From: an uncultured Syntrophobacterales bacterium
Lineage (GTDB): Bacteria; Desulfobacterota; Binatia; UBA9968; JAJDTQ01
DNA length: 64,000 bases
Direction of reading: 5' to 3'
NCBI GenBank assembly: GCA_964519455.1
Contig: CAZFIU010000012.1
Coordinates: forward strand, 2,775 to 66,774
Position 1 is the stretch's first letter. The number at the start of each line of letters is the position of its first letter. Both the position numbers and the translations under genes were made by a program. The notes under the pieces were generated by a model. That model saw only the letters and a list, made by a program, of their open reading frames with translations, was not told where the DNA came from and searched no databases. Of this stretch, positions 172 to 54,266 are shown piece by piece.

Positions 172-405
172 ATGGCAGAATCGGTGGTTCTGTTCACTCA
201 GCCCGGTTGACCGCCTTGTCATCGAGAGAAGGAGTATCTTTCTCAAAAAGGCGTCGATTTCGTGGAGAAGAACATTCGCGAGGACGAGGAGGCCCTGAAG
301 GACCTGCTGGCCCGCGGTTTCCAGAGCACCCCGGTGGTCATCATCGACGGGGAGGCGGTGGTCGGCTTCGATCAGGAGCGGATCGACACGCTTCTCGGGC
401 TCTGA
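172..405 (+). CDS. Glutaredoxin-like protein (YruB/NrdH type), 77 codons, with in-frame TGA at 208-210 replacing the first Cys of the CPPC active site; candidate selenoprotein (UPPC). MAESVVLFTQPG-U-PPCHREKEYLSQKGVDFVEKNIREDEEALKDLLARGFQSTPVVIIDGEAVVGFDQERIDTLLGL
   Basis: The gggagg RBS at 161-166 lies 5 nt upstream of the ATG at 172. The reading frame is continuous from 172 to the TGA stop at 403-405 if codon 208-210 is decoded. The translation shows the thioredoxin-fold beta1 motif VVLFTQPG, then xPPC, then the C-terminal VVxGFDxxxIxxLL signature of YruB-type glutaredoxins. The TGA sits exactly at the first redox Cys. Confidence 0.6.
226..244 (+). promoter_or_regulatory. Putative bacterial SECIS-like hairpin 16 nt downstream of the in-frame UGA: 5'-GAGAAGG-AGUAU-CUUUCUC-3' (7 bp stem with one G.U pair, GU in the apical loop); an outer helix CGCCUU(212-217)/AAGGCG(247-252) can extend it
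   Basis: Complementarity read directly from the sequence. The spacing from the UGA and a GU in the loop resemble known bacterial SECIS elements. No folding computation was done. Confidence 0.35.
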
Positions 406-531: not shown

Positions 532-2766
532 CTACGGTTGCGCCGCCCGCTTGGCCTTGAGCGCCTTGACGATCTTCTCGGGCGTGATCGGCAGGTCGTG
601 GATGCGTACGCCCACGGCATCGAACACCGCGTTGGAGATCACCGCCGGCGGCGGAATGATGGGCGGCTCGCCCACGCCCTTGGCCCCCAGCGGCCCCGAC
701 GCGCACGGGTGCTGGATCAGGTGCACTTCCACGGGCGGGGCATCCAGCGCGCTGAAGATCTTGTAATCCAGCAGGTTGGGGTTGTCCATCTTGCCGTCGG
801 TGAAGGTGCACGCCTCGCTGAGCGCCTGCCCCAGTCCCTGCAGGACCCCGCCTTCTATCTGACCGCGCACGGACAGTGGATTGACCGCGGTGCCGACGTC
901 CTGCGCCGCCACGTAGCGATGGATGCGTACGTGGCCGGTCTCCGGGTCCACGTCCACCTCGGCCGCGTGCGCGGCGATGGCCGGATGCGGCGTGAGCTGG
1001 GACACGGACTGCGTGCTCACGATGGGGCCGCGCGCGTGCTCCAGGGCCAGTTGACCCACCTCGCGCAGCGTCACGGCCCGTTCCGGGCTCCCCTTGACGA
1101 ACACCGTGTTGTCGTCGAGCTCCAGGTCGCCGGGGTCGGCTTCGAGCTTGTCCGCCGCCACCTGCTGAATCTGCCGCTTCGCCTCCCGCGCCGCCAGCAG
1201 CACCGCGCCGCCCATGCTCTTGAGCGCCTGGCTGCCCGCGCTGAGGGTGGAATGGGGCGCAAAGTCGGTGTCGGCGGTGCGTACGTGTACGTCGGCCAGC
1301 GATACGCCCAGCACCTCCGCGGCGATCTGCGCCAGGGACGTGTTGGCGCCGCTCAGGTCCACCAGGCCCGTGAGGATGGCGACGGTGCCGTCTTCGTTGA
1401 GCTTGACGCCGGCGCTGGACGCCATGCCGCCCACGAGCCAGTGGGCCATGGCGATGCCGCGCCCGACGTTCTTTCCCGCCGGCCTCGGCACCGCGTTCAT
1501 GGCCTCGGCCGCCTTGAGCAGCGTCTCCTTCGCGTGCACGTCCTCTAGCCGGGCGCCGGCGGGGGTCTCGTCGCCGTCCACCATGGCGTTGCGCAGCCGC
1601 ATCTCCACGGGGTCGATGCCCAGCTCCCGGGCGATGATGTCCATCTGCGACTCGGACGCGAAGGCGAGCTGGGGTCCCGCCGGTCCCCGGTAGGCACCGC
1701 ACGTCGCCGTGTTGGTGTAGACGCAGTAGCTGTCGATCCTGAGGTTGGGCACGCGGTAGGGTCCCGGCGCGCGCACGGCCGCGCCCTGGCTGATCATGAC
1801 GCCGGAACCGGCCGAGAAACCGGTGCCAAGCACCACCTCGATCTCCCGCGCGGTGATGGTGCCGTCGCGCTTGACCCCGGTCTTGTAGCGCAGGTGGAAC
1901 GGATGCCTGGGGTTGGTGGTCTGGAAGTCCTCGCCCCGGCTCATGACGATGCGCACCGGGCGCCGTGCCTTGCGGGCCAGGGCCACCGCCGCTGGCTCGA
2001 CGGTGGGTGACAGCTTGCCGCCGAAGCCGCCGCCGATCTCGGTGGGGATGACCCGCACCTTGGTCATGGGCATCCGCAGGATCTGCGCGATGGCGGCGCG
2101 CAACGGGAACTGGGCCTGGGTGGACGCCCACACCGTGGCCTTGCCCGAGGCGTCGAAGCGCGCCGTGGCGGTGTGCGGCTCGATGTAGGTCTGGTGCACC
2201 ATGGGCACGTGGAAGCGGTGCTCGAAGATCCGGTCGGCCTCGGCGAACCCGCGTTCCACGTCGCCGCGTACGATCTGCTTGTGGCCGCAGACGTTGCCGC
2301 GGCGGTCCAGGTCCGGCTGCGCCCAATATTCGGCGTAGTCTTCGTGCAGCAGCGGCGCGTCGGGCGCCATGGCTTCCAGGCCGGAGGTGACCGAGGGCAG
2401 CACCTCGTAGTCCACCTCGATGAGGCGCGCGGCTTCCTCCGCGGTCTCCTCGTCCACGGCGGCCACCGCGGCGATGCGGTCGCCGGCGTAGCGCGCCTTG
2501 GTGGTGGCGAAGTAGGCCTCGTCGCGGACGAAGCGGCCGTAGCGGACGGCCGGCAAGTCGGCGGCCGTGACCACCGCCTTGACGCCCGGCAACCGCTCGG
2601 CGCGCTCGGTGCGGATGGCGGCGATGCGCGCGTGGGCATGCGGGCTCAGCACCATCTTGCCGGCAAGCACCCGGCCGCCGGGCAGGACGTCCGCGCCGAA
2701 CACCGACTGTCCGGTGACCTTCTCCAGAATCTCGACCCTGGGGAGCTCCTGACCGACGACTCTCAT
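532..2766 (-). CDS. Xanthine dehydrogenase/CO dehydrogenase family molybdopterin-binding large subunit (CoxL/aldehyde oxidoreductase-like), about 744 aa
   Basis: Translation begins MRVVGQELPRVEILEKVTGQ and includes the family motif GGGFGGK. It is a long, non-repetitive ORF. Its ATG overlaps the stop of the upstream 2Fe-2S subunit gene by ATGA at 2763-2766. Confidence 0.85.
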   Translation of the reverse strand: MRVVGQELPRVEILEKVTGQSVFGADVLPGGRVLAGKMVLSPHAHARIAAIRTERAERLPGVKAVVTAADLPAVRYGRFVRDEAYFATTKARYAGDRIAAVAAVDEETAEEAARLIEVDYEVLPSVTSGLEAMAPDAPLLHEDYAEYWAQPDLDRRGNVCGHKQIVRGDVERGFAEADRIFEHRFHVPMVHQTYIEPHTATARFDASGKATVWASTQAQFPLRAAIAQILRMPMTKVRVIPTEIGGGFGGKLSPTVEPAAVALARKARRPVRIVMSRGEDFQTTNPRHPFHLRYKTGVKRDGTITAREIEVVLGTGFSAGSGVMISQGAAVRAPGPYRVPNLRIDSYCVYTNTATCGAYRGPAGPQLAFASESQMDIIARELGIDPVEMRLRNAMVDGDETPAGARLEDVHAKETLLKAAEAMNAVPRPAGKNVGRGIAMAHWLVGGMASSAGVKLNEDGTVAILTGLVDLSGANTSLAQIAAEVLGVSLADVHVRTADTDFAPHSTLSAGSQALKSMGGAVLLAAREAKRQIQQVAADKLEADPGDLELDDNTVFVKGSPERAVTLREVGQLALEHARGPIVSTQSVSQLTPHPAIAAHAAEVDVDPETGHVRIHRYVAAQDVGTAVNPLSVRGQIEGGVLQGLGQALSEACTFTDGKMDNPNLLDYKIFSALDAPPVEVHLIQHPCASGPLGAKGVGEPPIIPPPAVISNAVFDAVGVRIHDLPITPEKIVKALKAKRAAQP

Positions 2767-3236
2767 GATTCCTCCGCTGCCTCCATGACGGCTTGAACGA
2801 TGGTGCCGTAGCCGGTGCAGCGGCACAGGTTGCCGGCGATGCCGTGGGTCACTTCCTCGCGGGTGGGCGAAGGGTTGCGGTCCAGCAGGGCCTTGCTTGC
2901 CATGAGCATGCCCGGCGTGCAATAGCCGCACTGGGCCGCTCCCACAGCGGCGAAGGTACGCTGCAGCGGGTGCAGCACCTCGCCGTCGGCCAACCCCTCC
3001 ACGGTCTCTACGTTCCGGCCGTCCGCCTCCGCCGCGAGGATCAGGCAGGCGTCCACCAGCCGCCCGTCGACGATCACCGAGCACGCGCCGCATTCCCCCT
3101 CGCCGCAACCCTCCTTGGTGCCGGTGAGGCCCAGGTCGTCGCGCAGGAAATCCAGCAGCGAGCGGGTGGCCGGGACGTCCTCGCTGACGGCTTCGCCGTT
3201 GACCGTGACCGTGATGCGGATGCGTGGGGTCTCCAT
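2763..3236 (-). CDS. (2Fe-2S)-binding small subunit of molybdenum hydroxylase (CoxS-like)
   Basis: The translation carries the cysteine clusters CGEGECGACSV and CGYCTPG...CRCTGY typical of these subunits. ATGA start/stop overlaps occur at both ends. Confidence 0.85.
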   Translation of the reverse strand: METPRIRITVTVNGEAVSEDVPATRSLLDFLRDDLGLTGTKEGCGEGECGACSVIVDGRLVDACLILAAEADGRNVETVEGLADGEVLHPLQRTFAAVGAAQCGYCTPGMLMASKALLDRNPSPTREEVTHGIAGNLCRCTGYGTIVQAVMEAAEES

Positions 3237-4102
3237 CAATCCTCGCCTCGCGCGCGCCGGAACGCGCTCCGGACGGCCCGCCGGGTCAACACCCGGACCA
3301 TCTCGGTCCGATAATCCGCGCTCGCGCGCACGTCGTCGATGGGGCGGGCGTCCCTGGCGGCGCACTCACCCGCCTCCTCCACGACGCGTTCGTCCAGCCG
3401 CGCGCCCGCCAGACGGTTTTCCGCGGACGCGGCGCGCAGCGGCGTGGGCCCCACCGCGCCGAGCGCGATGCGCGCCTCCACGACGGTGTCGGGGTCGTCC
3501 TCGTCCAAGCGAACGAAGGCGGCGCAGTTCACCACCGCGATGTCCATGGCCGTGCGAACGCAGCGTTGGAACGCGCTGCCGGAGCGGGCAGGCATGGCCG
3601 GTACGTGGACCGCGGTCAAGATCTCGCCGTCCCGCAACGCGGTCCTGCCGGGCGCCAGGAACAATCGATCCACCGGCACCTGGCGGGAGCCGTTCGCGTC
3701 GGCGGCCTCCGCCGAAGCGCCCAGCGCCACCAGCGGGGTGGCCGTGTCCGCCGCCGGGGAGGCGTTGGCCAGGTTGCCGCCCAGGGTGGCGCGGTTGCGG
3801 GTCTGGATCGACCCCACCACTCGGGCGGACTGCATCAAGGCTTCGTATCGGCCGGCAATCAGTGAGGAGGCGTCCAGGCTCTCCATGAGAGCAAGGGCGC
3901 CGATCCGGACTCCGCCGTCCACTGCCTCGATCCGATCCAGTTCCGGAATCCGTTTCAGATCGACTACCGTGTCCGCCTGCGTCTGCCGGCGCTCCAACTT
4001 GAGAAACAGGTCCGTCCCTCCGGCCAGGGGAACGGCCCGAGGCGTCAGCAGTGCGAGGGCTTCGTCGAGGCTGCGCGGAGCCCGGTAGTGGAAAGGCCTC
4101 AT
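3236..4102 (-). CDS. FAD-binding subunit of molybdenum hydroxylase (CoxM-like)
   Basis: Translation MRPFHYRAPRSLDEALALL...AGGTDLF is typical of the CO dehydrogenase flavoprotein family. It is the first gene of the M-S-L operon on the minus strand. An alternative ATG lies at 4117. Confidence 0.8.
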   Translation of the reverse strand: MRPFHYRAPRSLDEALALLTPRAVPLAGGTDLFLKLERRQTQADTVVDLKRIPELDRIEAVDGGVRIGALALMESLDASSLIAGRYEALMQSARVVGSIQTRNRATLGGNLANASPAADTATPLVALGASAEAADANGSRQVPVDRLFLAPGRTALRDGEILTAVHVPAMPARSGSAFQRCVRTAMDIAVVNCAAFVRLDEDDPDTVVEARIALGAVGPTPLRAASAENRLAGARLDERVVEEAGECAARDARPIDDVRASADYRTEMVRVLTRRAVRSAFRRARGED

Positions 4103-4364
4103 GGTTTCAGCGGCCATTCATCGCACTTTTTTGCGGGGGATGCAATTCGGCCAAGATCCGGGAGGAATGTGGGAACCGGTGGAAGTCTGTAGGGAGAACG
4201 GGGACAACGAAGTGTCCGCGGCATATCTTGGCGGGAAACGGCCTTTCCTGGTAGCTCTGTTGGGGACGCAGCCGGCCGCTCGATCGGACGCGCCGTGATG
4301 GCGACGTGCCCGGGACCGTCCCCGGCACGTGTCCCGGCGCGTGAAGAAGAAGGAGAAGACGTCC

Positions 4365-4764: not shown

Positions 4765-5817
4765 ATGACGAGCCAATCCAAGACCGGCGTCGGCGGCCGC
4801 GGGAGCAGCGACAACCCCCGGAACCGTTTCGAGCCCGTCGCCTTCGTCCCGGACGATTCGCCGGACGGGCCGGCGACCACCTTCCTCAGGGACACCTCCC
4901 GGTCCATCATCGCGTACAACGACAGCCCGGACGTGGGTTTCGATGCCAGCGTCAATCCGTACCGCGGGTGCGAGCACGGCTGCATCTATTGCTATGCGCG
5001 GCCCACGCACGAGTACCTGGGTCTCTCCGCCGGCCTGGATTTCGAGTCCAGGATCCTGGTGAAGGAGCGCGCACCGGAGCTTTTGCGGAAGGAGTTGTCC
5101 TCGCCCCGCTGGAAGCCCCAGGTGGTGGCCATGTGCGGGGTGACCGACCCGTATCAGCCCGTGGAGCGGAAGCTGGAGCTGACCCGCGGCTGTCTCGAGG
5201 TCCTGGCCGCGTTCCGCAATCCGGTGGCGGTCGTCACCAAGAACCACCTGGTGACCCGGGACGTGGACGTCCTCGCGGAACTGGCGGCGCGCGACGCCGC
5301 GGTGGTGTTCATTTCGGTGACGACGCTGGACCGGGACCTCTGTGGCCGCATGGAGCCGCGTGCCTCCCAGCCGCCTCTCCGTCTGGAGGCCATACGGACC
5401 CTCCGGGAGGCAGGCATTCCCGTGGGCGTCATCGTGGCGCCGGTGATCCCGGCCCTCACCGACCACGAGCTGCCGGCGATCCTGGCGGCCGTGGCGGAAG
5501 CCGGAGCCACCACGGCCGGCTACTCGCTGGTGCGTCTGCCCTTCGGCGTCAAGGACCTGTTCGAGCGCTGGCTGGAAGAGAACTATCCCGACCGCAAGGG
5601 CAAGGTGCTGAACCGAATCCGCGAGATTCGCGGCGGCAGGCTCAACGACGCCGGCTTCAAGACCCGCATGACGGGACAGGGGATTTTCGCCGCGCAGGTG
5701 GAGGCGTTGTTCGACGGCGCTTGCCGGAAGCTGGGCCTGTCGCGCAGGAGCTGGAGCCTTTCCACGGCGTCGTTCCGGCGCCGGACCGCTCAGCGCTCGC
5801 TCTTCGACGGCGACTGA
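4765..5817 (+). CDS. Radical SAM protein, PA0069 family (spore-photoproduct-lyase-like DNA repair radical SAM)
   Basis: Translation contains CEHGCIYCYA, a CxxxCxxC radical-SAM cluster motif, in the family-typical context. Confidence 0.8.
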   Translation: MTSQSKTGVGGRGSSDNPRNRFEPVAFVPDDSPDGPATTFLRDTSRSIIAYNDSPDVGFDASVNPYRGCEHGCIYCYARPTHEYLGLSAGLDFESRILVKERAPELLRKELSSPRWKPQVVAMCGVTDPYQPVERKLELTRGCLEVLAAFRNPVAVVTKNHLVTRDVDVLAELAARDAAVVFISVTTLDRDLCGRMEPRASQPPLRLEAIRTLREAGIPVGVIVAPVIPALTDHELPAILAAVAEAGATTAGYSLVRLPFGVKDLFERWLEENYPDRKGKVLNRIREIRGGRLNDAGFKTRMTGQGIFAAQVEALFDGACRKLGLSRRSWSLSTASFRRRTAQRSLFDGD

Positions 5818-6594: not shown

Positions 6595-6699
6595 GTTTAC
6601 CTCCGAAGTTCCGCTTGGCTGTGGCGTCGAAAGCTAACTAACACTTCGGTGTTGTCGCGGCAAATCTCCCGCGGACGCGTTCCCCGACGCCCTCCGCCC

Positions 6700-6757
6700 G
6701 GACTCCCGCCCCCGATCGGGGTCCAGGGCAAGCTTCCGCGGGAACGACGACCGCGGG
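6700..6757. repeat. Degenerate half-copy of the palindromic extragenic repeat family (module B: CCCGCCCCCGATCGGGGTCCAGGGCAAGCTTCCGCGGGAACGAC)
   Basis: The sequence matches the copies at 49071-49136 and 61081-61125. It is intergenic and divergent, between the SDR and AKR genes. Confidence 0.6.
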
Positions 6758-6831
6758 TGATCCGGTCTCTCGCCGGCCCCGGCTCGCGCCCGCGGGGCCG
6801 ATCTGGTACACAGGCGGCGGGAGGATTCTTC

Positions 6832-7770
6832 GTGGAATATCGTCAACTTGGATCTTCGGGCTTGCGGGTTTCGGCCATCGGACTGGGCACCAATCGGTTC
6901 GGTTCGCCGGCACTGCCGCGGGAACAGGTGGGCGCCATCATGGACGCGGCGGTGGAGCTGGGAGTCAACTTCATCGACACTTCCAACAGCTACCAGGGCG
7001 GACGCTCCGAAGAGACGCTGGGGGCGGCCATGAAGGGCCGCCGGGACCGCTTCGTGGTCGCCACCAAGTTCTTCTTCCCCACGGGCGACGGCCCCAACGA
7101 CCGCGGCACGTCGCGCTACCATCTCATGAACGCGGTCGAGGAGAGTCTCCGGCGTCTTCAGACCGACCACATCGACGTCTATTACATCCACCGTTGGGAT
7201 GCATCGACGCCCATCGAGGAGACCCAGCGGGCGCTGGACGACCTGGTCCGCCAGGGGAAGGTCCGCTACATCGGCGCCTCCGATTTCGCGTCGTGGCAAC
7301 TGGCGCGGGCCAACGTCGTTGCCGAGTTCCGCGGCTGGACGGCGTTCGCCGTGCTCCAGTCCCACTATCACATGCTGGAACGGGAGGTGGAACGGGAGGT
7401 GCTTCCCTATTGCGGCGCCCACGGCGTGGGTTTCGTGCCGTATTTCCCGCTGGCCGGCGGGTTTCTCACGGGCAAGTACGTCAAGGGCGAGAAGGCGCCG
7501 CCCGGCTCCCGCGGCGAGACCCAGCGCTACGTGCAGCAATACATGACGGACCGCCACTACGACGCGGTGGCCAGGCTGAAGAGTTGGGCGGAAGCCCGGG
7601 GGAAGGGGATGAACGAGTTGGCGCAGTGCTGGCTGCTGGCGCAGCCGCGGGTGTGCTCGGTGATCTCCGGCGCCACCCGCCTGACGCAGTTCCGGGACAA
7701 TGCCAAGGCCGCGGAATGGGTGCTCTCGTCCCAGGAGCTTGCGGAGGTCGACGAGATGCTGGCCGGGTGA
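6832..7770 (+). CDS. Aldo/keto reductase (AKR) family oxidoreductase
   Basis: GTG start at 6832 with an RBS ggcgggagga. Translation begins VEYRQLGSSGLRVSAIGLGT and continues through typical AKR signatures. Confidence 0.85.
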   Translation: MEYRQLGSSGLRVSAIGLGTNRFGSPALPREQVGAIMDAAVELGVNFIDTSNSYQGGRSEETLGAAMKGRRDRFVVATKFFFPTGDGPNDRGTSRYHLMNAVEESLRRLQTDHIDVYYIHRWDASTPIEETQRALDDLVRQGKVRYIGASDFASWQLARANVVAEFRGWTAFAVLQSHYHMLEREVEREVLPYCGAHGVGFVPYFPLAGGFLTGKYVKGEKAPPGSRGETQRYVQQYMTDRHYDAVARLKSWAEARGKGMNELAQCWLLAQPRVCSVISGATRLTQFRDNAKAAEWVLSSQELAEVDEMLAG

Positions 7771-7894
7771 GTCGGCGCGTGCCGGGTGTCCCGCGTCACC
7801 AACAGCTTGATGAATCCGCGGGCTTCCCTTCCCGTCCGGGCATGCCCGAGGACGCCTCCTCGTTGGCGGAGGCGGCAGGACCGCGACGGTTCCG

Positions 7895-8374
7895 TCAGTG
7901 CAGGGTACGCATGGAAGGCTTGAGCTCGATGACCGCGATCTCGGACTCGTCGTCCGCAGCGGAGTCGGGCTTTCGTCGACGGGCGGCCTCGTTCAGCAAC
8001 AGCACCACCATGCGCCACAACTCCTGCTTTTCCACCGGTGCGTGCAGCAGCAGGTCGGCACCCGCCGCGAGCGCCCGCCGATGTTCCGGCAAAAGAGCAC
8101 CCGACAGGATCAGGATGATCGGAGTGTGCTGGTGCGCGCCCTGTTTCCGGATGGCCCGGCAGAGCTCGAAGCCGTTCAGCGGGCCCTTGAGGAAGGCGTT
8201 CACGAGGAACAGGTTTATCTCCTGCGCTTCGATCCGGGACAGCGCTTCGCGGCCTTCGTTGACGCCCAGGACGTCGATGGCCGGCGACAGTTCCCGCAAG
8301 TGCGTTGACAGCGCTTCCTGCTGGCTCGTGTAGCTGTCGGCAATGAGAATTCTGGGTCGTACGCTGCGTGGCAT
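7895..8374 (-). CDS. Single-domain response regulator (CheY-like receiver), orphan
   Basis: Translation begins MPRSVRPRILIADSYTSQQEAL with the receiver-domain layout. The six-frame ORF carries an N-terminal extension that I judged spurious. Confidence 0.7.
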   Translation of the reverse strand: MPRSVRPRILIADSYTSQQEALSTHLRELSPAIDVLGVNEGREALSRIEAQEINLFLVNAFLKGPLNGFELCRAIRKQGAHQHTPIILILSGALLPEHRRALAAGADLLLHAPVEKQELWRMVVLLLNEAARRRKPDSAADDESEIAVIELKPSMRTLH

Positions 8375-8661
8375 GGCGCTCTCGTGACTGCTCCGCTGAA
8401 GACTGAAAAACCCCGGCCTGAATCCGTGGCCCTGGTCCGACTCCGGCGGGGCCCTCCTCCCCGGGACTCGGACGCGAATCGCATTCAATAATGCGGAACA
8501 GCGGGTGTCAAGACCTCGACCAAAAAAATTTCTTGTCGAGGAGCAACAATTTTCAGTCATCGGCAAGAAGAGAACTAAACGTCGTTTCCCGATGCGTGGT
8601 CTGCATCGGGACACGAGAACCAGCCGAATGCGGGAGGTGGGGCTACGTTGGCGAGTCGTTG

Positions 8662-9471
8662 TCAAACGAGTTGAAAGAACTCGCGCATAGCGACGTGGGC
8701 CGCGTCCGGATTGACGAAGAAGTAGCTGTGGCGTTCTCCGGGCAGCACGACAAGGCGGGCTCCGGGTATGCCTTGTTCGAGAATCTCCGACGAAGTCCGG
8801 TGGGATATGTCGCTGGTGACGTTGCGGTCGTGCTCGCCGACCAGGATCAAGGCAGGGCAGCGGATCTCGCCGAGGCGGCCGCTGGTGTCGTGCCCTTGCC
8901 GTGCCAGCAGGTGGCGGAAGTAGAACTCCACCGGCCCCATGTTGGCCATGCGCACGCGCAGGTAGTTCTCCACGCGGTCCGGGTGACGCTGGACGAACTC
9001 CTCGGTGAATCCGACGAGGATGGAGTGGTCACGGACATATTTCTCGTACCCCCATTCCACCATCTCCGTCGCGATCTTGAGAGGGATGCCCTTGGTGTGG
9101 GGATAGGCCGCCCCGGTGGACGCCAGGACGAGCGCCTTGATCCGCGCGGGATGATCCAATGCCATGACCTGGGCCACCCGGCCGCCCATGGAATGGCCGC
9201 AGACGATGGCCTCGCCCGCGCCGAGGTGGTCAAGGAGGGCCATGGCGTCGTCCGCGAACATCCGGGTCGTGAAGGGTATGGCCGGTTTTCCGGACTGTCC
9301 CGTGCCGCGATAGTCCATGGTGATCACCTGGTGGTCGCGGGCGAACTCCGGCACCTGATGGATTTTCCACACCTCCCCGTCGCAGTGAGTCTCGCTCAGG
9401 AAGAGCAGGGGCGCGCCCTCGCCGTGGACTTCGTAGTAGAGTTCGGTGTCGTTGACGGGTAGCAAGGGCAT
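8662..9471 (-). CDS. Alpha/beta hydrolase fold protein
   Basis: Translation begins MPLLPVNDTELYYEVHGEGAPLLFL and contains the nucleophile elbow GHSMGG. The long Arg-rich N-terminal part of the six-frame ORF was rejected. Confidence 0.8.
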   Translation of the reverse strand: MPLLPVNDTELYYEVHGEGAPLLFLSETHCDGEVWKIHQVPEFARDHQVITMDYRGTGQSGKPAIPFTTRMFADDAMALLDHLGAGEAIVCGHSMGGRVAQVMALDHPARIKALVLASTGAAYPHTKGIPLKIATEMVEWGYEKYVRDHSILVGFTEEFVQRHPDRVENYLRVRMANMGPVEFYFRHLLARQGHDTSGRLGEIRCPALILVGEHDRNVTSDISHRTSSEILEQGIPGARLVVLPGERHSYFFVNPDAAHVAMREFFQLV

Positions 9472-9527
9472 AAGGATCTCCAGCGGCGGTACAGCGGGTC
9501 GGCCGGACGTGAGCCATCCGGGCGCGG

Positions 9528-10709: not shown

Positions 10710-10812
10710 GTTATTCTCCTGGTTCGGTCCTGTCCGGCAGGACGGCCGCCATCCTTGTGGCGTATAGCGGGAACCGCGGCGGAAGACAACGCGCGATCAC
10801 GGAGTGCACATC

Positions 10813-11697
10813 ATGGAGTTGGGTCTTTCCCTTTTTTCGACGGAGCGGTCCGGTCCCGTGGGCGACATCGCGCGGGAGGCCGAGGCCCTGGGCTTCGAGT
10901 CCCTGTGGTTTCCCGAGCACATGCTCATCCCGGTCCACTATGAAACGCGCTACAAGCGCACCCCGGACGGCAAGGTGCCCGAGTCCTTCGGACACCTGCC
11001 GGATCCTTTCATCGCCGCGGCCATGGCCGCTCAGGCCACGGAGCGCCTGCGCGTGGCCACCGGCATCTGCATACTGCCGCAACGCGAAGTCATCGCCACC
11101 GCCAAGGCAGCCGCCACGCTGGACCGACACAGCGGCGGACGCCTGATCATGGGGGTGGGCGCCGGCTGGTTTCCCGAAGAAGCGGCGATCCTCGGGGTCA
11201 CCGAGTTCAAGCGCCGGTGGCAGGCGTTGCGCGAGGGGGTCGAGGCGCTGCGCCTGTTGTGGACCCGGGAAGACGCCGAGTACGGTGGCGAGTTCGTTCG
11301 CTTCCCGCCGGTGCGGGTCTTCCCCAAGCCGCTCCAGAAGCCGCATCCTCCGGTCCACCTGGGGGTGCACGACCCCCGGCACGCGCCCCGGCGGGTAGCC
11401 CGGTACGCCGACGGCTGGTGTCCGGGGGACCTGCCCGTGGACGAGGCTGCGGACGCGGTGGCGAGTGTGCGGCGCGCGGCCGTGGAGAGCGGACGCGATC
11501 CCGCGGGGATCGAGTTCTCGGTGGTGCTGACGCCCGCCGAAGGCTTCCCCACCGTGGAAGACATGGCCCGTTACCGCGCGGCGGGCATGCGGCGCATCAT
11601 CCTGCGGGTGATGGAGGCCGCCACGGGGAGCGGGGTCGAAGCGGTGCGCCGGCTGCATCGCTTCATCGAACAGGCGCAACGCGTCGAACCGTGCTGA
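10813..11697 (+). CDS. LLM class (luciferase-like) flavin/F420-dependent oxidoreductase
   Basis: Translation begins MELGLSLFSTERSGPVGDIAREAEALGFESLWFPEH, which is typical of LLM/F420-dependent oxidoreductases. An RBS acggag precedes the ATG at 10813. Confidence 0.8.
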   Translation: MELGLSLFSTERSGPVGDIAREAEALGFESLWFPEHMLIPVHYETRYKRTPDGKVPESFGHLPDPFIAAAMAAQATERLRVATGICILPQREVIATAKAAATLDRHSGGRLIMGVGAGWFPEEAAILGVTEFKRRWQALREGVEALRLLWTREDAEYGGEFVRFPPVRVFPKPLQKPHPPVHLGVHDPRHAPRRVARYADGWCPGDLPVDEAADAVASVRRAAVESGRDPAGIEFSVVLTPAEGFPTVEDMARYRAAGMRRIILRVMEAATGSGVEAVRRLHRFIEQAQRVEPC

Positions 11698-11726
11698 TCG
11701 GTTTCCGGGCCGGGCGGCACGCCGGT

Positions 11727-12536
11727 CTATGCCGGCAGGCCCCTGGTGATGAGCACCGTCAGACCCAGGCCCCAGCAGTAGAGAGCGAACCAGGTGAGGC
11801 GGCGTGACAGCAGGACCCTCAGCAGCACCTCGATGCCGAGATAGCCGGTCACGAACGCGGCGACGAAGGCCACAGCGTAGCCGGGCGCGTTGATCTCGAG
11901 AGTTCCGTCCAAACCGTGGGAAAGGAGCTGGAGCGTGAATGCTCCCAGGATCGCGGGTATGGAAAGCAGGAACGAGTAACGCAGGGCGAGGTTGCGTCCG
12001 AGACCGCTCAAGACGCCCGCGGCAACGGTCGCCCCGGAGCGCGACACCCCCGGGATGATGGCCATGCCCTGGACGAGGCCGATGAGGAGGGCGTGCCAAA
12101 CGCGCATTTTCTCGATGTCCGCGCCCTTGCCGCGCGCACGATCCGTGGCTGCAAGCAGGGTGCCGGTCACCAGCAGCATGCTCGCCGCGGTGGGGACGCT
12201 GCTGAAAAGGTGCTCCAGTCCGTCCTTGAACAGCAGGCCGATCAGGGCCGTGGGCAGGGTGCCGGCCAAGACCAGCCCGAGAAGGCGGACGGCGGCCGGG
12301 TCGGAACTCCGGGGCCTCAGCCCGGCATGTGCCAACACCGCGACATCGTTGCGAAAGTACAGCAACACCGCGCCGAGCGTTGCCAAGTGTACGGTGGCAT
12401 GGAACAATACGCCGGTTTCCCGGAAGCCGGGCAGCCACGACTGAACCAGGACCAGATGGCCCGAACTGCTGACCGGAAGGAACTCGGTGAGCCCTTGAAG
12501 GATTCCCAGGGTTGCAAGAGTCAGGGTAGGGCTCAC
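11727..12536 (-). CDS. uppP: Undecaprenyl-diphosphate phosphatase (BacA/UppP)
   Basis: Translation contains the UppP motifs LGILQGLTEFLPVSSSGH and PGVSRSG. The protein is about 269 aa and predicted to be multi-pass membrane. Confidence 0.85.
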   Translation of the reverse strand: MSPTLTLATLGILQGLTEFLPVSSSGHLVLVQSWLPGFRETGVLFHATVHLATLGAVLLYFRNDVAVLAHAGLRPRSSDPAAVRLLGLVLAGTLPTALIGLLFKDGLEHLFSSVPTAASMLLVTGTLLAATDRARGKGADIEKMRVWHALLIGLVQGMAIIPGVSRSGATVAAGVLSGLGRNLALRYSFLLSIPAILGAFTLQLLSHGLDGTLEINAPGYAVAFVAAFVTGYLGIEVLLRVLLSRRLTWFALYCWGLGLTVLITRGLPA

Positions 12537-12988
12537 GATTCGGGCTCGCGACTCATCGTCCGCCGAAAGGGCGTTGCCCCGCGCCGGGCTCGCGCGGCGT
12601 TCGGTCGGGGATCGTTGCGGAGTCTACTACGAAACGGGCCGCGAGGCCATGACAGCGGCCCGTGCGACTCGTTGCCGAGGTCCCGCTCATGACAGTGGCG
12701 AAGAACGGGGCAAGCATCGTTCGGTATGGAAGCTATTGAGTCGCAACGATCATCATTTAATTTCTCTTTCGACAAATTGTAACCAAATTGTAATAATCTA
12801 ATGTTAGCTGCGGTAACTGCTGCCTTGACTCACGTTGTTCTGCCTGTCTCTGACATGGGCTCGGGTGCTGCAAACGCGACCGCGAACCCGTATCAGAGAC
12901 AGGAAGACAGCGTGTCCAACCAAAACGGTCGGGGACGGACCCCTCCTCCCGCGTCCCCGGCCGCCTTCCTCTTCCAATCGAGACCTCA

Positions 12989-14067
12989 TGACGGTTTTTG
13001 ACGGCAGGCTCAGCCTTCAGTTCGTCACCCACCTGGCGAACCACTACACGGTCAACCGTTTTGTGGAACTGGCCGCCCTGGCCCGCGAACGCGGCTTCGA
13101 ACGTATCTGGCTCAATGACAACGCACGCTACCGGAGCCAGGTGGTGGTCCTTTCCGCCATCGCCGCGCGCGTGCCCATCGGCGTGGGTACGGCCGTGCTG
13201 GTGCCCTACTTCCATCATCCCATCGAGGTGGTGGACTCGCTGGCGGCTCTTTCGGAGCTGAGCGACGGGCGCGAAGTGGGGTTCGGGCTGGCGCGAGGTT
13301 CCACCACCCAGACGCCGCAGCACGTGACCATGCACCGGCCCCTGGCGCTGGTGCGGGAGTTGGCCGTGTTCGTGTCGCGGGCGCTGGCCGGGGAGAGCGT
13401 GAACTACGCGGACTTCCCCGTGCTGTGCGAGCACTACCACTTCAATCCCGCGGGCAGGTTCAAGCTCGCGTTCACGCCCAAGTCCCCCGTGGTCATCTAT
13501 TCGGGCGGCAACGGCCCCCGGTCGCTGCGCATGGGCGGCCGGGTCATGGACGGCCTCATCAGCTCGGGGACCTTCATTCCCATGCTTCGGGCGGGCCGGC
13601 TCAAGGGGATGATCGAGAGGGCCGAGGCCGGGGCGCGCAGCGCCGATCCCGGCAAGACCCTGCGCAAGATGGTGGAGCTCAACGTGTCGGTATCGCGCGA
13701 CCGGGACGCGGCCATGGAGTTCCCCAAGCGCCAGGTGGCCCACTCGATCCCCCAGTGGGAGTCGCTCGGGTTCACACCCGACGAGTACGCCCGGCTCGGC
13801 GTGGAGCGGGGGCGCGTGCTCGATCTCAAGGACGCCTTCGCCCATGGCGCCACCATCGAGGAGGCCGCGGCCCTCGTTACCGAGCAGATGGTCCTGTCGT
13901 ATTACGTCGCCGGCACCCCCACCGAGGTCGCCGACCAGGTCGTGGAGCTGGCCGTCCAGGCCCGGGAGATGGGCTACCACGAGATCGCCTTCGCCAAGCT
14001 CGGCCCCGACTACGAGGAGGCCATCGAGATGCTGGCGGAAAGTGTCATGCCACGGCTGAACGGGTAG
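12989..14067 (+). CDS. LLM class flavin-dependent oxidoreductase, tandem paralog 1
   Basis: Translation begins MTVFDGRLSLQFVTHLANHYTVNRFVELAALARERGFERIWLNDN. It is about 75% identical to the downstream paralog. Confidence 0.85.
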
Positions 14068-16922: not shown

Positions 16923-16924
16923 GC

Positions 16925-17575
16925 ATGGAACTGCTCCACTGCGTTTACGAGCCCGAGGGGGATGGCCCCCACCCGACGATTCTGGCGCTGCACGGCCGTG
17001 GCGCCAATGCCATGGACCTGCTGGGCCTGGCGCCGCACCTGGGCGGCGGCGCGTTCCGGGTCATCTGTCCGCAGGCGCCGCTGGAGGTGCAGTTGGGCCC
17101 GGGCGTGACCGGCTACGCCTGGTTCCCCATGTCCCTGGGCGGCGAGATCGACACCGGCGCGTTCCTGTCCGCCCGCGACCGGCTCCGCTCTTTCGTGGAC
17201 CAGTGCGCCGGGCAGTACCCTTTGGGCGGCCGCAAGCTCACTCTGCTGGGCTTCAGTCAGGGCGGAGGCATGGCATACAGCCTGGGCCTGTCCGAGCCGG
17301 ACCGCTTCGCGGGCATGTGCATTCTGAGTTCGTGGCTCCGGGAGGGGACCCTGTCGGCGCTGGGCGTGGCCGACCGGGTCGACTCCCTGCCGACCCTCGT
17401 GCAGCACGGCAGGCGCGACGAGCTGATCGAGCTGGCGCGGGCCAAACACTCGATCGAGTTGCTGGAGAGACTTCAGGTGCCGGTGGAGTACCGCGAGTAC
17501 GACATGGGGCACGAGATCAACTCGCGGAGCCTGGGCGATCTGTCGGCGTGGCTCAGTGAGAAGGTGCTGGCGTAG
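16925..17575 (+). CDS. Phospholipase/carboxylesterase-type alpha/beta hydrolase
   Basis: Translation contains the GFSQGG nucleophile elbow and is about 216 aa. The start is tightly spaced with the epimerase stop. Confidence 0.75.
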   Translation: MELLHCVYEPEGDGPHPTILALHGRGANAMDLLGLAPHLGGGAFRVICPQAPLEVQLGPGVTGYAWFPMSLGGEIDTGAFLSARDRLRSFVDQCAGQYPLGGRKLTLLGFSQGGGMAYSLGLSEPDRFAGMCILSSWLREGTLSALGVADRVDSLPTLVQHGRRDELIELARAKHSIELLERLQVPVEYREYDMGHEINSRSLGDLSAWLSEKVLA

Positions 17576-17630
17576 CTCCAGCCTCTCCGCACATCCTGCC
17601 GCCCAATTGACCGGACACCACACCAGCGTT

Positions 17631-17700
17631 CGTATTCCCGGCCCTCCAGTTTGTATTCCCGGCCCTCCAATACGTCATTCCCGGCCCTCCAATACATTGG
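17631..17700. repeat. Three tandem copies of a ~21-bp unit GT(C)ATTCCCGGCCCTCCAATAC
   Basis: The copies read gtattcccggccctccag / gtattcccggccctccaatac / gtcattcccggccctccaatac. They are intergenic, between the convergent esterase and DMT transporter genes. Confidence 0.7.
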
Positions 17701-17782
17701 GGGGCGTAAGTCTCCTTTTCATTGCCCCCATTGGGTAGGGCTTGCCGCGCATCACGGACTTTCTTGCAACATCGGGGTTTGA

Positions 17783-18640
17783 CTACGCCAGGTAGATGGC
17801 GATGATTCCCGCGATGACGAAGATGGTGGCGACACCGGTGCGGAGAGAGACCTGCTCGATGTCGCGGGAGAAGAGGAGCGTGCCCAGCAGCACCCACAGC
17901 GGGGCGACACAGACGATGGGGCCGACCACCACGACGTTGCCCACACCCAGGGCCTTGACCAGCGCCCAGATCCCGATGGCCTCGAAGACGCCCGTGGCCA
18001 GGAAATAGGGCATGGCGCGGCGGTCGAGCACGATGTTCGCGCGCGCCTTGGGGTTGAGGAGATTGAGCAGCATGGGGGCCAGGGCGGATATGCCCATGAC
18101 CGCGCTCAGGAACAGCGGCTCGTTGGCGAGGGTGAGGCCGTAGCGCCGGATCGGGTGGTTGACGCCGGCGGTGAGGGCGGCGATCACCGGGAAGATGAGC
18201 TCCCATGTCTTGTAGGTCGCCTGCTGCCCCGGGTTCCACGAGAGCAGGGTGATGCCGAACACCACCGATCCGGTGCCGAAGACGATGAACGGCGTCAGGG
18301 TTTCGTGCAGGAACATGACCGCCAGGGCGGTGCCGAAGATCGGGTTGGTGGCCTGGACGGTGCTGGTGACGCTGGCGCCCAGGCGGGCGACCCCGTGGTA
18401 GGCGAACATGCGCGTGCCGAGCTGGAGCCAGCCGCCGACGATGAAGCAGAGGATGGCCAGCAGGGGGACGGCGGGGGCGCCGCCGGTGGCGAAGACGATG
18501 GTCCAGAGGATGGTGCTGTTGACGGTCAGCGCGACATAGGCAGCGGTGGCCGGGGTGGAGTACACCAGTCCGCGCCGGGTGGCCAGGAAGCAGCCGGCGT
18601 AGAAGAACGAAGTCACCAGGGCGAGGAACTGAGGTGTCAT
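17783..18640 (-). CDS. DMT superfamily (EamA-like) transporter
   Basis: The protein is about 285 aa with multiple hydrophobic spans. Its ATG overlaps the stop of the upstream gene (ATGA). Confidence 0.8.
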   Translation of the reverse strand: MTPQFLALVTSFFYAGCFLATRRGLVYSTPATAAYVALTVNSTILWTIVFATGGAPAVPLLAILCFIVGGWLQLGTRMFAYHGVARLGASVTSTVQATNPIFGTALAVMFLHETLTPFIVFGTGSVVFGITLLSWNPGQQATYKTWELIFPVIAALTAGVNHPIRRYGLTLANEPLFLSAVMGISALAPMLLNLLNPKARANIVLDRRAMPYFLATGVFEAIGIWALVKALGVGNVVVVGPIVCVAPLWVLLGTLLFSRDIEQVSLRTGVATIFVIAGIIAIYLA

Positions 18641-20634: not shown

Positions 20635-20672
20635 GGGCCGGCCCGCGGGTCGCGCACGAAAGGAGAAGGAAC

Positions 20673-21758
20673 ATGTCCGGCAACGGCAAGACCTTGGTGG
20701 TGGACTCGGACGCCCACGTGGTGGAGACCGAGCACACGTGGGACTACCTGGAAGCGTCCGAGAAGAAGTTCCGCCCGCAGCTCTTCGCCCCCGAGGACTC
20801 CACGACACAGTACTGGGTGCTGGACGGGAAGGTGCTGGGGTTCCGTTTCCGCACCCTGAGCGAGCAGCAGCTCGACGAGGTCTCGGCCCAGGCCGGGCGG
20901 CAGATGCAGACGCCCAAGGAGGCGCGGGAACTGCGCGACGTGCAGCTCCGCGTCGACCACCTGGACAAGCTCGGCATCGATGTCCAGGTCCTCTACAACA
21001 CGCTCTGGATAGAGCAGGTGACCGACCGCGTCGACGTCGAGATCGCCCTGTGCGCGAGCTGGAACCGCTGGATGGCGGACGTGTGGAAACAGGGGGGCAA
21101 CCGGCTCCGCTGGGTGTGCGTGGTGCCGGCCATGACCATCTCCGAAGCGCTGGAGCAGATCCGCTTCAGCAAGGAGAACGGCGCGGTGGGCGTGTGCCTG
21201 CGCCCCTTCGAGGACGACCGGCACCTGGTGGACCCCTACTTCTACCCGATCTTCGACGAGGCCATGCGCCTCGACATGATGATGGGCATCCACATCGCCA
21301 TCGGCAGCCCCAGGATGGCCTCGCAGTTCCGGCCGCGCTACGACAGCGGCGGCGGACTGCCGGTGTTCCGCATCCCCACGGTCTCCCAGTGCTTCACGCT
21401 GATGATGAGCGAGGTGCCCAAGGTCTTTCCGGACCTGCGCTGGGGCTTCATCGAGTCATCGGCCCAGTGGGTGCCGTGGGTGGTGAACGAGACCATCCGG
21501 AGGTCCGGGACCGCGGAATACCCCAGGGATCCCATGAAAGCGTTCAACATCTACGTGTCGGCCCAGACCGACGACGACTTCCCTTACGTCCTCAAGTACG
21601 CGGGCGACGACAATATCGTCATCGGCACGGACTACGGCCACACCGACGCCTCCAGCGAGGTGGACGCCTTCACCATCTTCAACGGCAACGACACCATTTC
21701 GGCGGAACAGAAGCGGAAGATCCTGAGCGACAACGGACGGGCGCTGTACGGACTGTAG
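20673..21758 (+). CDS. Amidohydrolase-2 family, paralog 2
   Basis: Translation begins MSGNGKTLVVDSDAHVVETEHTWDYL. An RBS aggagaagga lies upstream. It is highly similar to paralog 1. Confidence 0.8.
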   Translation: MSGNGKTLVVDSDAHVVETEHTWDYLEASEKKFRPQLFAPEDSTTQYWVLDGKVLGFRFRTLSEQQLDEVSAQAGRQMQTPKEARELRDVQLRVDHLDKLGIDVQVLYNTLWIEQVTDRVDVEIALCASWNRWMADVWKQGGNRLRWVCVVPAMTISEALEQIRFSKENGAVGVCLRPFEDDRHLVDPYFYPIFDEAMRLDMMMGIHIAIGSPRMASQFRPRYDSGGGLPVFRIPTVSQCFTLMMSEVPKVFPDLRWGFIESSAQWVPWVVNETIRRSGTAEYPRDPMKAFNIYVSAQTDDDFPYVLKYAGDDNIVIGTDYGHTDASSEVDAFTIFNGNDTISAEQKRKILSDNGRALYGL

Positions 21759-21825
21759 GTGGTGCAGGATTCGGATTCGATGGGCTGTTCCGGCTCCATG
21801 CTTCCAGCTTCCGCAACCTTGGGGT

Positions 21826-22395
21826 TCACTTGGCTCCGACCAGCACCGACACGTTGTAGCAGACGCTGGTGAACAGCGGGCTCGTGCTCAGCCCGGTCCA
21901 GACGAAGAGCTTGCCCTCGGCGAAGAAGATGTGCATGCCGCAGTCGAACGCCAGCACCACGGCGCCGAGCACCGCCGCGGTAATGGAGATGACCGCGAAC
22001 CAGTTCTCGCCGGCGCTCTTGAGGTAGAGGAAGGTCATCAGCCCTACGCCGAACTGGAAGCCGAGGAGCCAGATGGCCGCGGCGAAACCGAGGATCCAGC
22101 CGATGATCCCCGCGGTGCGGCGCCGTTCCTCCGCCGGGTCGATGTCCTCGCTTTCCTGCTCCAAGAGCGCCGCGTTGAAAGCGGTCGGTTCCTCGCCGTC
22201 CGCCTGCGCGGGTTTCTCGTCGGTCCCCATGAGCTGTCGCCCGAGCTGGAGCCCCAGCAAGGCCACCGTGGGGAGACCGATCATCCACGCCATGAGGCTT
22301 GCCTGCAACTCCCACTTCGAGGCTTCCCACAGCCCCCAGGCGATCATCAGGAACAACGCGCCGGTGAAGGCGGTGGAGTATCCGCGGAAGCTCAT
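21826..22395 (-). CDS. Tripartite tricarboxylate transporter small subunit (TctB-like)
   Basis: It is a small hydrophobic protein directly downstream of TctA with an ATGA overlap. Confidence 0.65.
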   Translation of the reverse strand: MSFRGYSTAFTGALFLMIAWGLWEASKWELQASLMAWMIGLPTVALLGLQLGRQLMGTDEKPAQADGEEPTAFNAALLEQESEDIDPAEERRRTAGIIGWILGFAAAIWLLGFQFGVGLMTFLYLKSAGENWFAVISITAAVLGAVVLAFDCGMHIFFAEGKLFVWTGLSTSPLFTSVCYNVSVLVGAK

Positions 22396-25108: not shown

Positions 25109-25278
25109 GGATTGCTCCTTCCTTGGTTGATCCAAGGTCCTTGTATTGCGGGCCGGGGCTGGATGTCAACCCGGCAAACGCCTCCGGGTGCGGTTTGACA
25201 ACCTCCCGCCCTTCGGCTAAGAACGCGAAATCTTCGGAGAAACCAACTTCCACTCAACAAGTGCGAGAGAGGTGACAC

Positions 25279-26724
25279 ATGCCCAAGAGCCTGGGATCGT
25301 TTCTGGAGGACTGCCGTCGGGAGATTCCCAACGAGGTGGTCCACGTGACCAAGCAGGTGGACCCGGCCCACTACGACGTGAGCGCGCTCATCAAGCACCT
25401 GGACGAGATGCGCAAGTTCCCCATCCTGGTGTTCGACAACCCGCTCAACCTCCACGGACAACCGTCCGACATCAAGCTGACCATGAACTGCGAGATTTCC
25501 CAGGGCAAGACGCAGGTGGCTCTCGGCCTGGACAAGGACACGAGCCGCGAGGTCATGACCGACATCTGCCTGGAACGGGAAGAGCACCGGGTCGAGCCGG
25601 TGGTCATCGAACGGGACCAGGCGCCGGTCATGCAGAACGTCCAGACCGGCAAGGACGTGGACATCTACCAGATCCCGGTGATGCGGCACCATTACATGGA
25701 CGGCGGTCCCTACATTGTCATGTCCACCATCACCAAGGAGCGGCAATCCGGCATCTACAACTGCTCGTACCACCGCATGGAGGTGAAATCGCCCCAGAGC
25801 ACGGCGCTGTACGCCTCGCCGCGCCACCTGTGGAAGATCTTCAAGGACTATGAAGACAACAACATGGAGTGCCCCGTGGCCACCGTGCTGGGACATCACC
25901 CGGCGTACCACATGGGCGCGTGCTACAGCGGCCCGTTCGAGGTGAGCGAGTTCGACATCATCGGCGGCTACATGCAGGAGCCGCTGCGGCTGACGCCGTC
26001 CTCCACCTGGGGCGACAACTTCCTCATCCCGGCCGATGCCGAGGTGGTGATCGAGGGGTTGCTCCAGCCCAACAAGCGCGTGGTGGAAGGCCCCTTCGGC
26101 GAGGCGCCGGGCTACCTCGGGCCGCAGCGCTACACCACCTGCGTGGAGTACAAGGTCACGGCCATGAACTGGCGCAAGGGCGCCATGTTCCAGTCCATCA
26201 TCACTCCGGAAGGGGACAAGCCGTGGATGGACCTGCCGCGCGAGGGCGCCTACCTGCGCCGTTGCCGCGAGGCGGTCCCCGGCGTGACCGCGGTGTGCAA
26301 GATGGGGCGCCACGCCCACTACAACGTCTTCATCGCCATGAAGAAGATGTCCGAGGGCGACCCCGGGCGCGCGGCGGCCGCGGCCCTGACCTTCGACCAC
26401 ACCAAGAACGTCTTCGTGTTCGACGAGGACATCAACGTGTACAACCCCACGGACATCCTGTGGGCGCTGGCCACGCGCGTGCAGCCGCACCGGCAGATCT
26501 CGATCCTGCAGCCGCTGTTCCGCGGCAACTTCCTGGATCCGTCGCTGGTGGACGAGATCAAGACCTCCGGCATGATCGTCGACGCCACGCGGCCGCTGGA
26601 CCGGCCCTTCTCGCCGGTGTCCAAGGTGCCGGACGAGGCCATGGAGCGCGTCAAGGTCGAGGACTTCATCCCGGGCGAGATCCTGTCGCACATCCCCATC
26701 GACCGGACCACGTACTGGTCGTAG
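25279..26724 (+). CDS. UbiD family decarboxylase (prFMN-dependent), paralog 1
   Basis: The protein is 481 aa and carries the UbiD-like segment EGPFGEAPGY, corresponding to E. coli UbiD EGPYGDHTGYY. Confidence 0.85.
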   Translation: MPKSLGSFLEDCRREIPNEVVHVTKQVDPAHYDVSALIKHLDEMRKFPILVFDNPLNLHGQPSDIKLTMNCEISQGKTQVALGLDKDTSREVMTDICLEREEHRVEPVVIERDQAPVMQNVQTGKDVDIYQIPVMRHHYMDGGPYIVMSTITKERQSGIYNCSYHRMEVKSPQSTALYASPRHLWKIFKDYEDNNMECPVATVLGHHPAYHMGACYSGPFEVSEFDIIGGYMQEPLRLTPSSTWGDNFLIPADAEVVIEGLLQPNKRVVEGPFGEAPGYLGPQRYTTCVEYKVTAMNWRKGAMFQSIITPEGDKPWMDLPREGAYLRRCREAVPGVTAVCKMGRHAHYNVFIAMKKMSEGDPGRAAAAALTFDHTKNVFVFDEDINVYNPTDILWALATRVQPHRQISILQPLFRGNFLDPSLVDEIKTSGMIVDATRPLDRPFSPVSKVPDEAMERVKVEDFIPGEILSHIPIDRTTYWS

Positions 26725-27898: not shown

Positions 27899-27956
27899 CG
27901 CGAAACACCTCGAAACGTCATCGATAGAACAATAAAGTGTTGTTCAGTGATTTCTG

Positions 27957-28145
27957 GTAGTTACGGAATCCCGCTACACCCCGGCGAGTCATTCCCGCGG
28001 AAGCGGGAATCCAGGCGGGGTGGGGCCGGGCAATGAGGCCCCCCCACCCCTGGATTCCCGCTTCCGCGGGAATGACGTTTCGGTGGGGGGTGGCTCCCTC
28101 AGATGACGTTTGACACGGTCTGTTTCGCGGGAATGACGAAACGGG
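27957..28145. repeat. Composite palindromic extragenic repeat: module A TACGGAATCCCGCTACACC...GTCATTCCCGCGGAAGCGGGAATCCAGG (27988-28015) with its inverted copy (28049-28076), plus module C GTTTGACACGGTCTGTTTCGCGGGAATGACG (28108-28138)
   Basis: Inverted repeats read directly. It is intergenic, between convergent genes, and the same modules recur elsewhere in the window. Confidence 0.8.
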
Positions 28146-28166
28146 GCGTCCACGTGAGTTGGGCAT

Positions 28167-41640: not shown

Positions 41641-41805
41641 TCCTCGCTTTTTTCACGCGCGTCACGCGCGCCGGCCGGAGGCCTTTCCGGTCCGCGGCAC
41701 CCGTCGCGCGGGCCGGGCCGACGGCCCGGACTCTTTCCCGGCCGCATGCTTTCGGGCCGGCGGCGCCAACCAACGAAAAGTCAAACGCCAGGGATTGGAG
41801 GTCCT

Positions 41806-48883: not shown

Positions 48884-49007
48884 GGCCGACAGAGTAGAAC
48901 AACGGCGATGGGAATGAAAGGAGACGAGAGCGGCCCATCCGCCGTAATTTCTGCGGAGCCGGCGGTGTCAACACTCCGCTCGGCCATGAGGTGGCACCGT
49001 CACCCCG

Positions 49008-53010: not shown

Positions 53011-53115
53011 GCCATGTCCGGATGGCCCGAGCCCGGAATCCAGGAGTCACTTTTCAACGGAAGTCCTATCGTATAGGAAGTAAGGCTTGATCCAACCGCA
53101 TCGAAAGGAACACGC

Positions 53116-54204: not shown

Positions 54205-54266
54205 GGCGGGGTCTTGGGAGCACCGGTGCCGAGGCGGGCTTCAAGCGGCCCCGCGCCCGTGACGTG

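Follow-up and report, generated by a model that had tools for sequence, protein, structure and literature searches.

Selenoprotein glutaredoxins (PF00462), which carry a UxxC motif, have been reported in surveys of prokaryotic selenoproteomes since at least 2006, examples being the proteins of Geobacter sulfurreducens (WP_010943784.1), Moorella thermoacetica and Alkaliphilus metalliredigens, and a current review treats them as an experimentally supported family. One of them, cGrx1 of Clostridium (Alkaliphilus) oremlandii OhILAs, is a native selenoprotein with its catalytic selenocysteine (Sec, U) in a U(C)PXC motif, and has been proposed as the reductant of the selenoprotein MsrA. The PDB entries for its structures (7C10, 7C12 and 7C13) bear titles such as 'Dithiol cGrx1' and 'monothiol cGrx1(C16S)'. 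The crystal construct has Cys in place of the native catalytic Sec, and the CPHC motif of these structures starts at residue 13.

The window, meaning the whole 64-kb stretch of DNA that was analysed, carries a predicted gene for a glutaredoxin-like selenoprotein on its forward strand (nt 172-405; 77 codons plus stop), recognised by translation, Pfam matching and comparison of orthologues. The first-pass annotation had described a strong ribosome-binding site, and a Shine-Dalgarno-like GGGAGG is indeed present (nt 161-166), 5 nt upstream of the ATG at nt 172, and would be that site. The full frame reads MAESVVLFTQPG, an in-frame TGA at codon 13 (nt 208-210), PPCHREKEYLSQKGVDFVEKNIREDEEALKDLLARGFQSTPVVIIDGEAVVGFDQERIDTLLGL and a terminal stop, likewise TGA (nt 403-405), so that translation confirms the internal TGA and the frame that stays open beyond it. 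Codon 13 occupies the place of the first Cys of the CxxC motif, and the resulting motif is U13-P-P-C16 followed by HREKEY. Cys16 (TGT, nt 217-219) is Cys in 32/32 orthologues and is the predicted resolving cysteine of the UxxC motif, a role suggested by the CxxC mechanism of cGrx1. The sole in-frame start codon 3' of the internal TGA is a GTG at nt 262, and it opens a 47-aa ORF that lacks a redox motif; the earlier description of this start and its product holds, but it had been placed near nt 258.

When scored with Cys in place of the internal stop, the protein matched the Pfam Glutaredoxin model PF00462 with an E-value of 1e-15 (58.1 bits; cutoff 22.9). The best NCBIfam match was the YruB model TIGR02196 (76.9 bits, under the curated cutoff of 88.55, with Cys in the Sec place), while the NrdH-redoxin model TIGR02194 gave 56.8 bits, under its cutoff of 85.75, again with Cys for Sec. 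The Uxx-star glutaredoxin-like selenoprotein model NF041212 gave 52.9 bits and did not reach its cutoff of 66; the other Uxx-star models (NF041114, NF041211 and NF047338) scored lower still and also fell short of their cutoffs. The YruB/NrdH-type label given at first was thus apt insofar as these are the nearest models, and the protein has the small size (74-81 aa) and fold of those families in common, but by the NCBI thresholds it belongs to neither, YruB being the nearer. In the domain scans of the window, no genes for a ribonucleotide reductase stood out. Its PF00462 score, together with the predicted fold of a homologue (below), places the deduced protein among the glutaredoxins of the thioredoxin fold.

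Among proteins of solved structure, cGrx1 is the closest by sequence (E 6.6e-20). The two are of about equal length and align colinearly over residues 1-77, with ~48% identity as counted from the alignment. The residue-13 Cys of the crystal construct, Sec in the native protein, aligns with the predicted Sec codon of the window gene, and both proteins have the pattern U/C-P-x-C, which is UPHC in cGrx1 and UPPC here. A structural model of the homologue P0002 (65% identical; pLDDT 94.4) has strand b1 at residues 5-9 and helix a1 at residues 14-25, with residue 13 at the N-terminus of helix 1. Its top PDB match was 7C10 (TM 0.92-0.95, rmsd 0.8 Å), which suggests that the fold is shared with cGrx1. 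The next solved match is the thioredoxin-like protein BC3987 of Bacillus cereus (3ZIJ, 3ZIT; E 4e-13), which superimposes on the P0002 model with a TM of ~0.9 and an rmsd of 0.8-1.0 Å. It reads 'YTQPDCPPC' where the window protein reads 'FTQPGUPPC', with the same two residues inside the motif, but it has Cys instead of Sec, and neither a UGA nor a SECIS element. The two selenoprotein hosts are unlike: that of cGrx1 is an anaerobic Firmicute, whereas the window (G+C 67%) comes from a high-GC member of Candidatus Binatota. The proposed cGrx1 partner, MsrA, has no gene near the window gene. With the surveyed selenoprotein glutaredoxin family the window gene shares PF00462, a UxxC motif near the N-terminus, and a putative SECIS element within the coding sequence just 3' of the UGA. 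The gene is a Binatia homologue of an already characterised selenoprotein glutaredoxin; it is of a known kind and calls for no new mechanism.

The conservation of codon 13 was assessed in related genomes and metagenomes. In a scan of one genome per species, the gene was recovered in 25 genomes, 89-95% identical, most of which are labelled Candidatus Binatia and a few Deltaproteobacteria, Thermodesulfobacteriota or Syntrophobacterales; the two nearest relatives have ~91% DNA identity to the window, which assigns it to a Binatia species (phylum Candidatus Binatota). Carriers of the gene include complete Binatia chromosomes such as OZ244070.1, OZ244617.1, OX638375.1, OY729432.1 and OY761465.1. 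Codon 13 is TGA in 43/43 close loci, the 25 species-level Candidatus Binatia genomes among them, and always within the context QPG-U-(P/G)-P-C. Further contigs also keep it (4/4), and when the 43 close loci were collapsed to unique orthologue sequences, it was invariant in 32/32. The 80 nearest metagenome homologues (47-74% identity) have TGA in 79 cases, with motifs that include UGPC, UGAC, UASC, ULFC, UMFC, UIFC and UVFC, and TGT in one (L098, nt 1501-1719), the sole Cys form among them, which reads QPG-C-S-A-C. A Cys codon is thus the sole non-TGA codon found at this position within the family. Distant homologues in Omnitrophota, Wolfebacteria and one unclassified bacterium have CPYC or CPWC, and the UGA aligns with the first Cys of these motifs (L044-L046), as it does with that of CSAC in L098 and of CPHC in 7C10; comparison with Cys-containing homologues, proposed at the outset as a check, therefore came out as expected for Sec in a CxxC motif. 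A search of 1.8 billion cluster representatives returned many 65-aa 'MFC...' fragments (from U-M-F-C) and forms with W for TGA, and the true Cys forms among them had CPPC, CAPC or CIPC.

These data bear directly on whether the gene is a pseudogene created by a nonsense mutation. Such a reading could draw on the database records, where a protein search found 16 relatives, 14 of them gene-caller fragments of only 43-60 residues that begin 3' of the TGA. Against it, over 120 independent assemblies, with protein identities as low as 47%, share TGA at this codon; every copy, in close and metagenome loci alike, is free of frameshifts and additional stops; and among the 32 unique orthologues pN/pS is far under 1 on either side of the TGA, at 0.24 for codons 2-12, 0.08 for codons 14-27 and 0.14 for codons 28-77. 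The comparative data refute this reading, which deserves practically no credence. The decaying gene with a disabling mutation, raised in the first-pass annotation as an outcome that would count against Sec, is not what the relatives contain.

The same alignments address translation that stops at UGA13, yielding a 12-aa leader peptide and a separate 47-aa product from GTG 262, or the related notion that the hairpin described below is regulatory and not a SECIS element. The GTG exists, and gene callers use it. However, 8/32 orthologues have GTT or GTC, which are not start codons, at the corresponding codon 31. Codons 14-30 offer no in-frame start either and yet form the most protein-constrained part of the gene (pN/pS 0.08), and the 47-aa product would be devoid of the redox motif as well as of strand 1 and helix 1. 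This second explanation is therefore very improbable. Codons 2-12 vary synonymously among the 32 orthologues (e.g. ACC/ACG/ACT and CCC/CCG/CCT). Since purifying selection acts on both sides of the UGA, codons 14-27 contain no start and the GTG is not kept, the whole 77-codon frame is translated through the TGA. On this comparative evidence it is a real gene of 77 codons in which the UGA is strictly conserved and the codons before and after it are under purifying selection.

A hairpin with a GU-containing loop had been noted at nt 226-244, and it is present in the minimum-energy fold of the window sequence. This predicted apical stem-loop of a bacterial SECIS element has the strands GAGAAGGA-GUA-UCUUUCUC, with 8 bp formed by nt 226-233 and 237-244 around the loop GUA (nt 234-236), and it begins 15 nt after the UGA, the gap to the loop being 23 nt. 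The bacterial SECIS consensus quoted in a 2026 review specifies a loop of 3-9 nt with G within the first two positions, a stem of 4-16 bp, a UGA-to-loop distance of 16-37 nt and a minimum free energy (MFE) of -7.5 kcal/mol or lower. The hairpin conforms to these published rules: its 3-nt loop starts with G and then U, its stem has 8 bp and the spacing is 23 nt, while the computed MFE goes from -7.0 when the 19 nt are folded alone to -8.5 once flanking nucleotides are included, and to between -11.4 and -16.3 once the lower stem is added. The possible lower stem (nt 213-217 with 248-252, the whole spanning nt 213-252) is likewise part of the minimum-energy fold, close to the 212-217/247-252 extension first suggested, but its comparative support is no better than chance and its pairing register differs among homologues. 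Searches of Rfam, at the gathering threshold over the whole window and at E up to 10 over nt 150-450, gave no SECIS or other meaningful match, as expected given the diversity of bacterial SECIS elements.

Folding of the single sequence against shuffles gave modest z-scores (-1.65 to -2.9), so the case for the hairpin rests on the comparison of homologues. Across the 32 orthologues, synonymous diversity is 0.14 in the hairpin codons and 0.47 in the remaining gene. Several hairpin codons are rare within their synonymous sets in the host genome (CTT 4%, TCT 1%, CAA 10%, CCT 4%, CGA 3%), yet CTT, TCT and CAA are near-invariant, the rare CTT and TCT being kept in 32/32. Out of 5000 synonymous recodings generated for codons 19-25, not one was as stable as the native sequence (-8.7, against a mean of -2.4 with an sd of 1.6). 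The near-invariance of rare codons indicates that the hairpin codons are under selection at the RNA level. A hairpin lies at the same place in 95/95 unique TGA-bearing homologues, the loops of which are GUU (51), GUA (19), AGUU (13), AGUUC (11) and GUG (1). In a diverse set of 31 sequences, chosen for one common pairing register, compensatory double changes were found at 4/8 pairs (A-U to U-A or C-G, G-C to A-U, and A-U to C-G at the closing pair), values that 0/500 shuffles reached, and 94.8% of cells were paired compared with 39-75% when the partner strand was slid. It is the unclassified metagenome sequences, which are more distant, that supply the compensatory changes; taken alone, Binatia have an invariant hairpin, without covariation. 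Distant Cys homologues have no hairpin at this place (0 to -0.6 kcal/mol), and in the Cys form of L098 (TGT) it is weakened (-5.9 kcal/mol), as would be expected after a change from Sec to Cys. The conservation of a downstream hairpin, a point on which the initial reading had been said to depend, is thus borne out.

Taken together, the conserved UGA at the catalytic position, the conserved and covarying hairpin and the colinearity with a native Sec glutaredoxin lead to the reading that UGA13 very probably encodes selenocysteine and that this is a genuine selenoprotein gene. They also uphold the original proposal of a selenoprotein glutaredoxin with Sec in place of a CxxC cysteine.

The host shows no reassignment of TGA in its genetic code. 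Of the 38 confident ORFs in the window, 21 end with TGA, which makes it the main stop codon there, and it also ends the glutaredoxin gene itself in the window and in 28/32 orthologues. The reading of UGA in this gene is therefore dependent on context, as one codon read in two ways within a single mRNA requires a local signal. A third explanation is that a suppressor or near-cognate tRNA inserts Trp, Cys or Gly at UGA13 and that the hairpin does no more than stimulate this read-through. In its favour, neither Sec synthesis and insertion genes nor their tRNA were found in the 64-kb window: ARAGORN detected no tRNA there, and a Pfam scan of its ~40 ORFs returned no SelA, SelB or SelD domains. Certain gene callers, moreover, put W at codon 13 under code 4. 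On the other side, TGA acts as a stop throughout the window and at the end of this very gene; the codon lies at the catalytic Cys of CxxC, a position at which Trp or Gly would abolish activity; Cys is the sole alternative meaning found at position 13; the hairpin fits a SelB-type consensus with its G-U loop; and the nearest characterised relative is a proven selenoprotein. Read-through without Sec is accordingly held to be quite unlikely, though less so than the two explanations discussed above.

The search for Sec machinery was extended to 0.9 Mb of homologue loci, in which tblastn with an E. coli SelD query found no match. Among 30 loci scanned with ARAGORN, one 97-nt 'tRNA-???' with a four-base anticodon was reported (L037, nt 7656-7752, forward strand); it lies inside the gene of an AMP-binding enzyme, has no Rfam match and is probably a false positive. 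A crude scan, which would miss short N-terminal pieces, found no other credible window ORF split by TGA.

A further gene interrupted by a conserved in-frame TGA, 191 codons long, was found outside the window, in 22 related loci, where it lies ~5 kb upstream of the glutaredoxin gene (L001, nt 4885-5460, and L012, nt 5109-5684, both on the reverse strand, and 20 others). Contigs matching the window's own 47-aa fragment were at most 5.4 kb long and did not extend as far as the OsmC-like gene. The further gene matches the NCBIfam model NF041052, 'OsmC-related (seleno)protein', with 135.7 bits (cutoff 95). The TGA, in the context …QYFVASIGF-U-MLSQVTQ…, is kept in all 22 loci, and gene callers break the gene into two ORFs of ~93 and 97 aa. 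The presence in the same genomes of two unrelated genes, each with a conserved and family-typical in-frame TGA, is hard to explain without Sec decoding, and is good indirect evidence for the Sec machinery. The literature searched held nothing that links Binatia or Binatota with selenocysteine; Binatota papers in that search that mention 'selen' do so only for SELENEBP1 or in a reference-list entry. An OsmC-like gene with a catalytic Cys was also seen a few hundred bases from a Sec-glutaredoxin gene of motif U-V-F-C in an unrelated metagenome lineage (L102, nt 2155-2790, and L105, nt 1736-2089, both on the reverse strand). This adjacency and the linkage in Binatia give a weak hint of a functional link between the two families.

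The product would be a 77-aa thiol/selenol oxidoreductase of the thioredoxin fold and glutaredoxin family, in which UGA13 is recoded to selenocysteine during translation. With the ribosome at the UGA, SelB carrying Sec-tRNA(Sec) would bind the hairpin at nt 226-244 and so supply Sec, while the UGA at nt 403-405, which has no such element, would end translation. Sec13, at the N-terminus of helix 1, would serve as the nucleophile that attacks a substrate disulfide or an oxidised Cys or Sec. Cys16 would then resolve the mixed selenenylsulfide to give an intramolecular Se-S bond, to be re-reduced by an upstream reductase or a low-molecular-weight thiol. By analogy with cGrx1 of C. oremlandii, candidate substrates are a methionine sulfoxide reductase or another Sec- or Cys-containing peroxidase, such as the OsmC-related selenoprotein of the sibling genomes.

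The genomic context gives no substrate, because the glutaredoxin gene stands alone, with a divergent gene upstream, which has merely a weak TctC-like match and offers no functional lead, and a convergent operon downstream. That operon (nt 532-4117, reverse strand) has three genes, which encode the MoCoBD, 2Fe-2S and FAD-binding subunits of a xanthine or CO dehydrogenase-type molybdenum hydroxylase, and every Binatia locus keeps it downstream of the glutaredoxin gene. A GC-rich inverted repeat seen between the convergent genes (nt 409-430) may be a terminator; for want of a T run, a consensus terminator scan made no call there. Elsewhere in the window, a TlpA/ResA-like thiol:disulfide oxidoreductase gene with AhpC-TSA/Redoxin domains (nt 60003-60953, forward strand) adjoins a gene for Caa3_CtaG cytochrome oxidase assembly (nt 58628-60094, forward strand); its WCPPC motif has the same x-x residues as the Sec-glutaredoxin but an ordinary Cys. 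Several enzyme families are repeated (nt 10768-14067, 25276-26724, 41641-43248, 47909-48967 and 53077-56567), with three luciferase-like monooxygenases and two each of UbiD-family decarboxylases, ornithine cyclodeaminase/mu-crystallin proteins, enolase-superfamily proteins and M20 peptidases. Four segments (nt 6634-9527, 16923-18636, 20635-22391 and 27899-29014) show a weak or ambiguous codon-position G+C signal and contain no confident ORF.

Public gene calls for this glutaredoxin family are systematically wrong. Besides the 14 fragments mentioned above, the two full-length database relatives (P0001 and P0002) show Trp at the Sec position, which is attributed to short contigs having been translated with genetic code 4; their DNA has TGA (L009, nt 643-876; L010, nt 169-414; L011, nt 281-526). 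With U13 in corrected models, a predicted redox-active protein would be regained for many metagenome lineages and for no fewer than 25 species of Binatia.

Looking more widely, it may be speculated that the QPG-U-x-x-C clade is a widespread and nearly always Sec-containing group of redoxins of soil, sediment and groundwater microbes, that Binatota possess a selenoproteome, and that in Binatia the glutaredoxin and the OsmC-related selenoprotein encoded 5 kb away form a selenium-to-selenium relay for peroxide reduction, like that of cGrx1 and MsrA in C. oremlandii. This scheme is put forward with low confidence. The gene and its relatives offer strong indirect evidence of selenocysteine use in the uncultured phylum Binatota, and they bring to a selenoprotein family that has been described as rare a large clade in which most members have Sec and the SECIS element is well supported.
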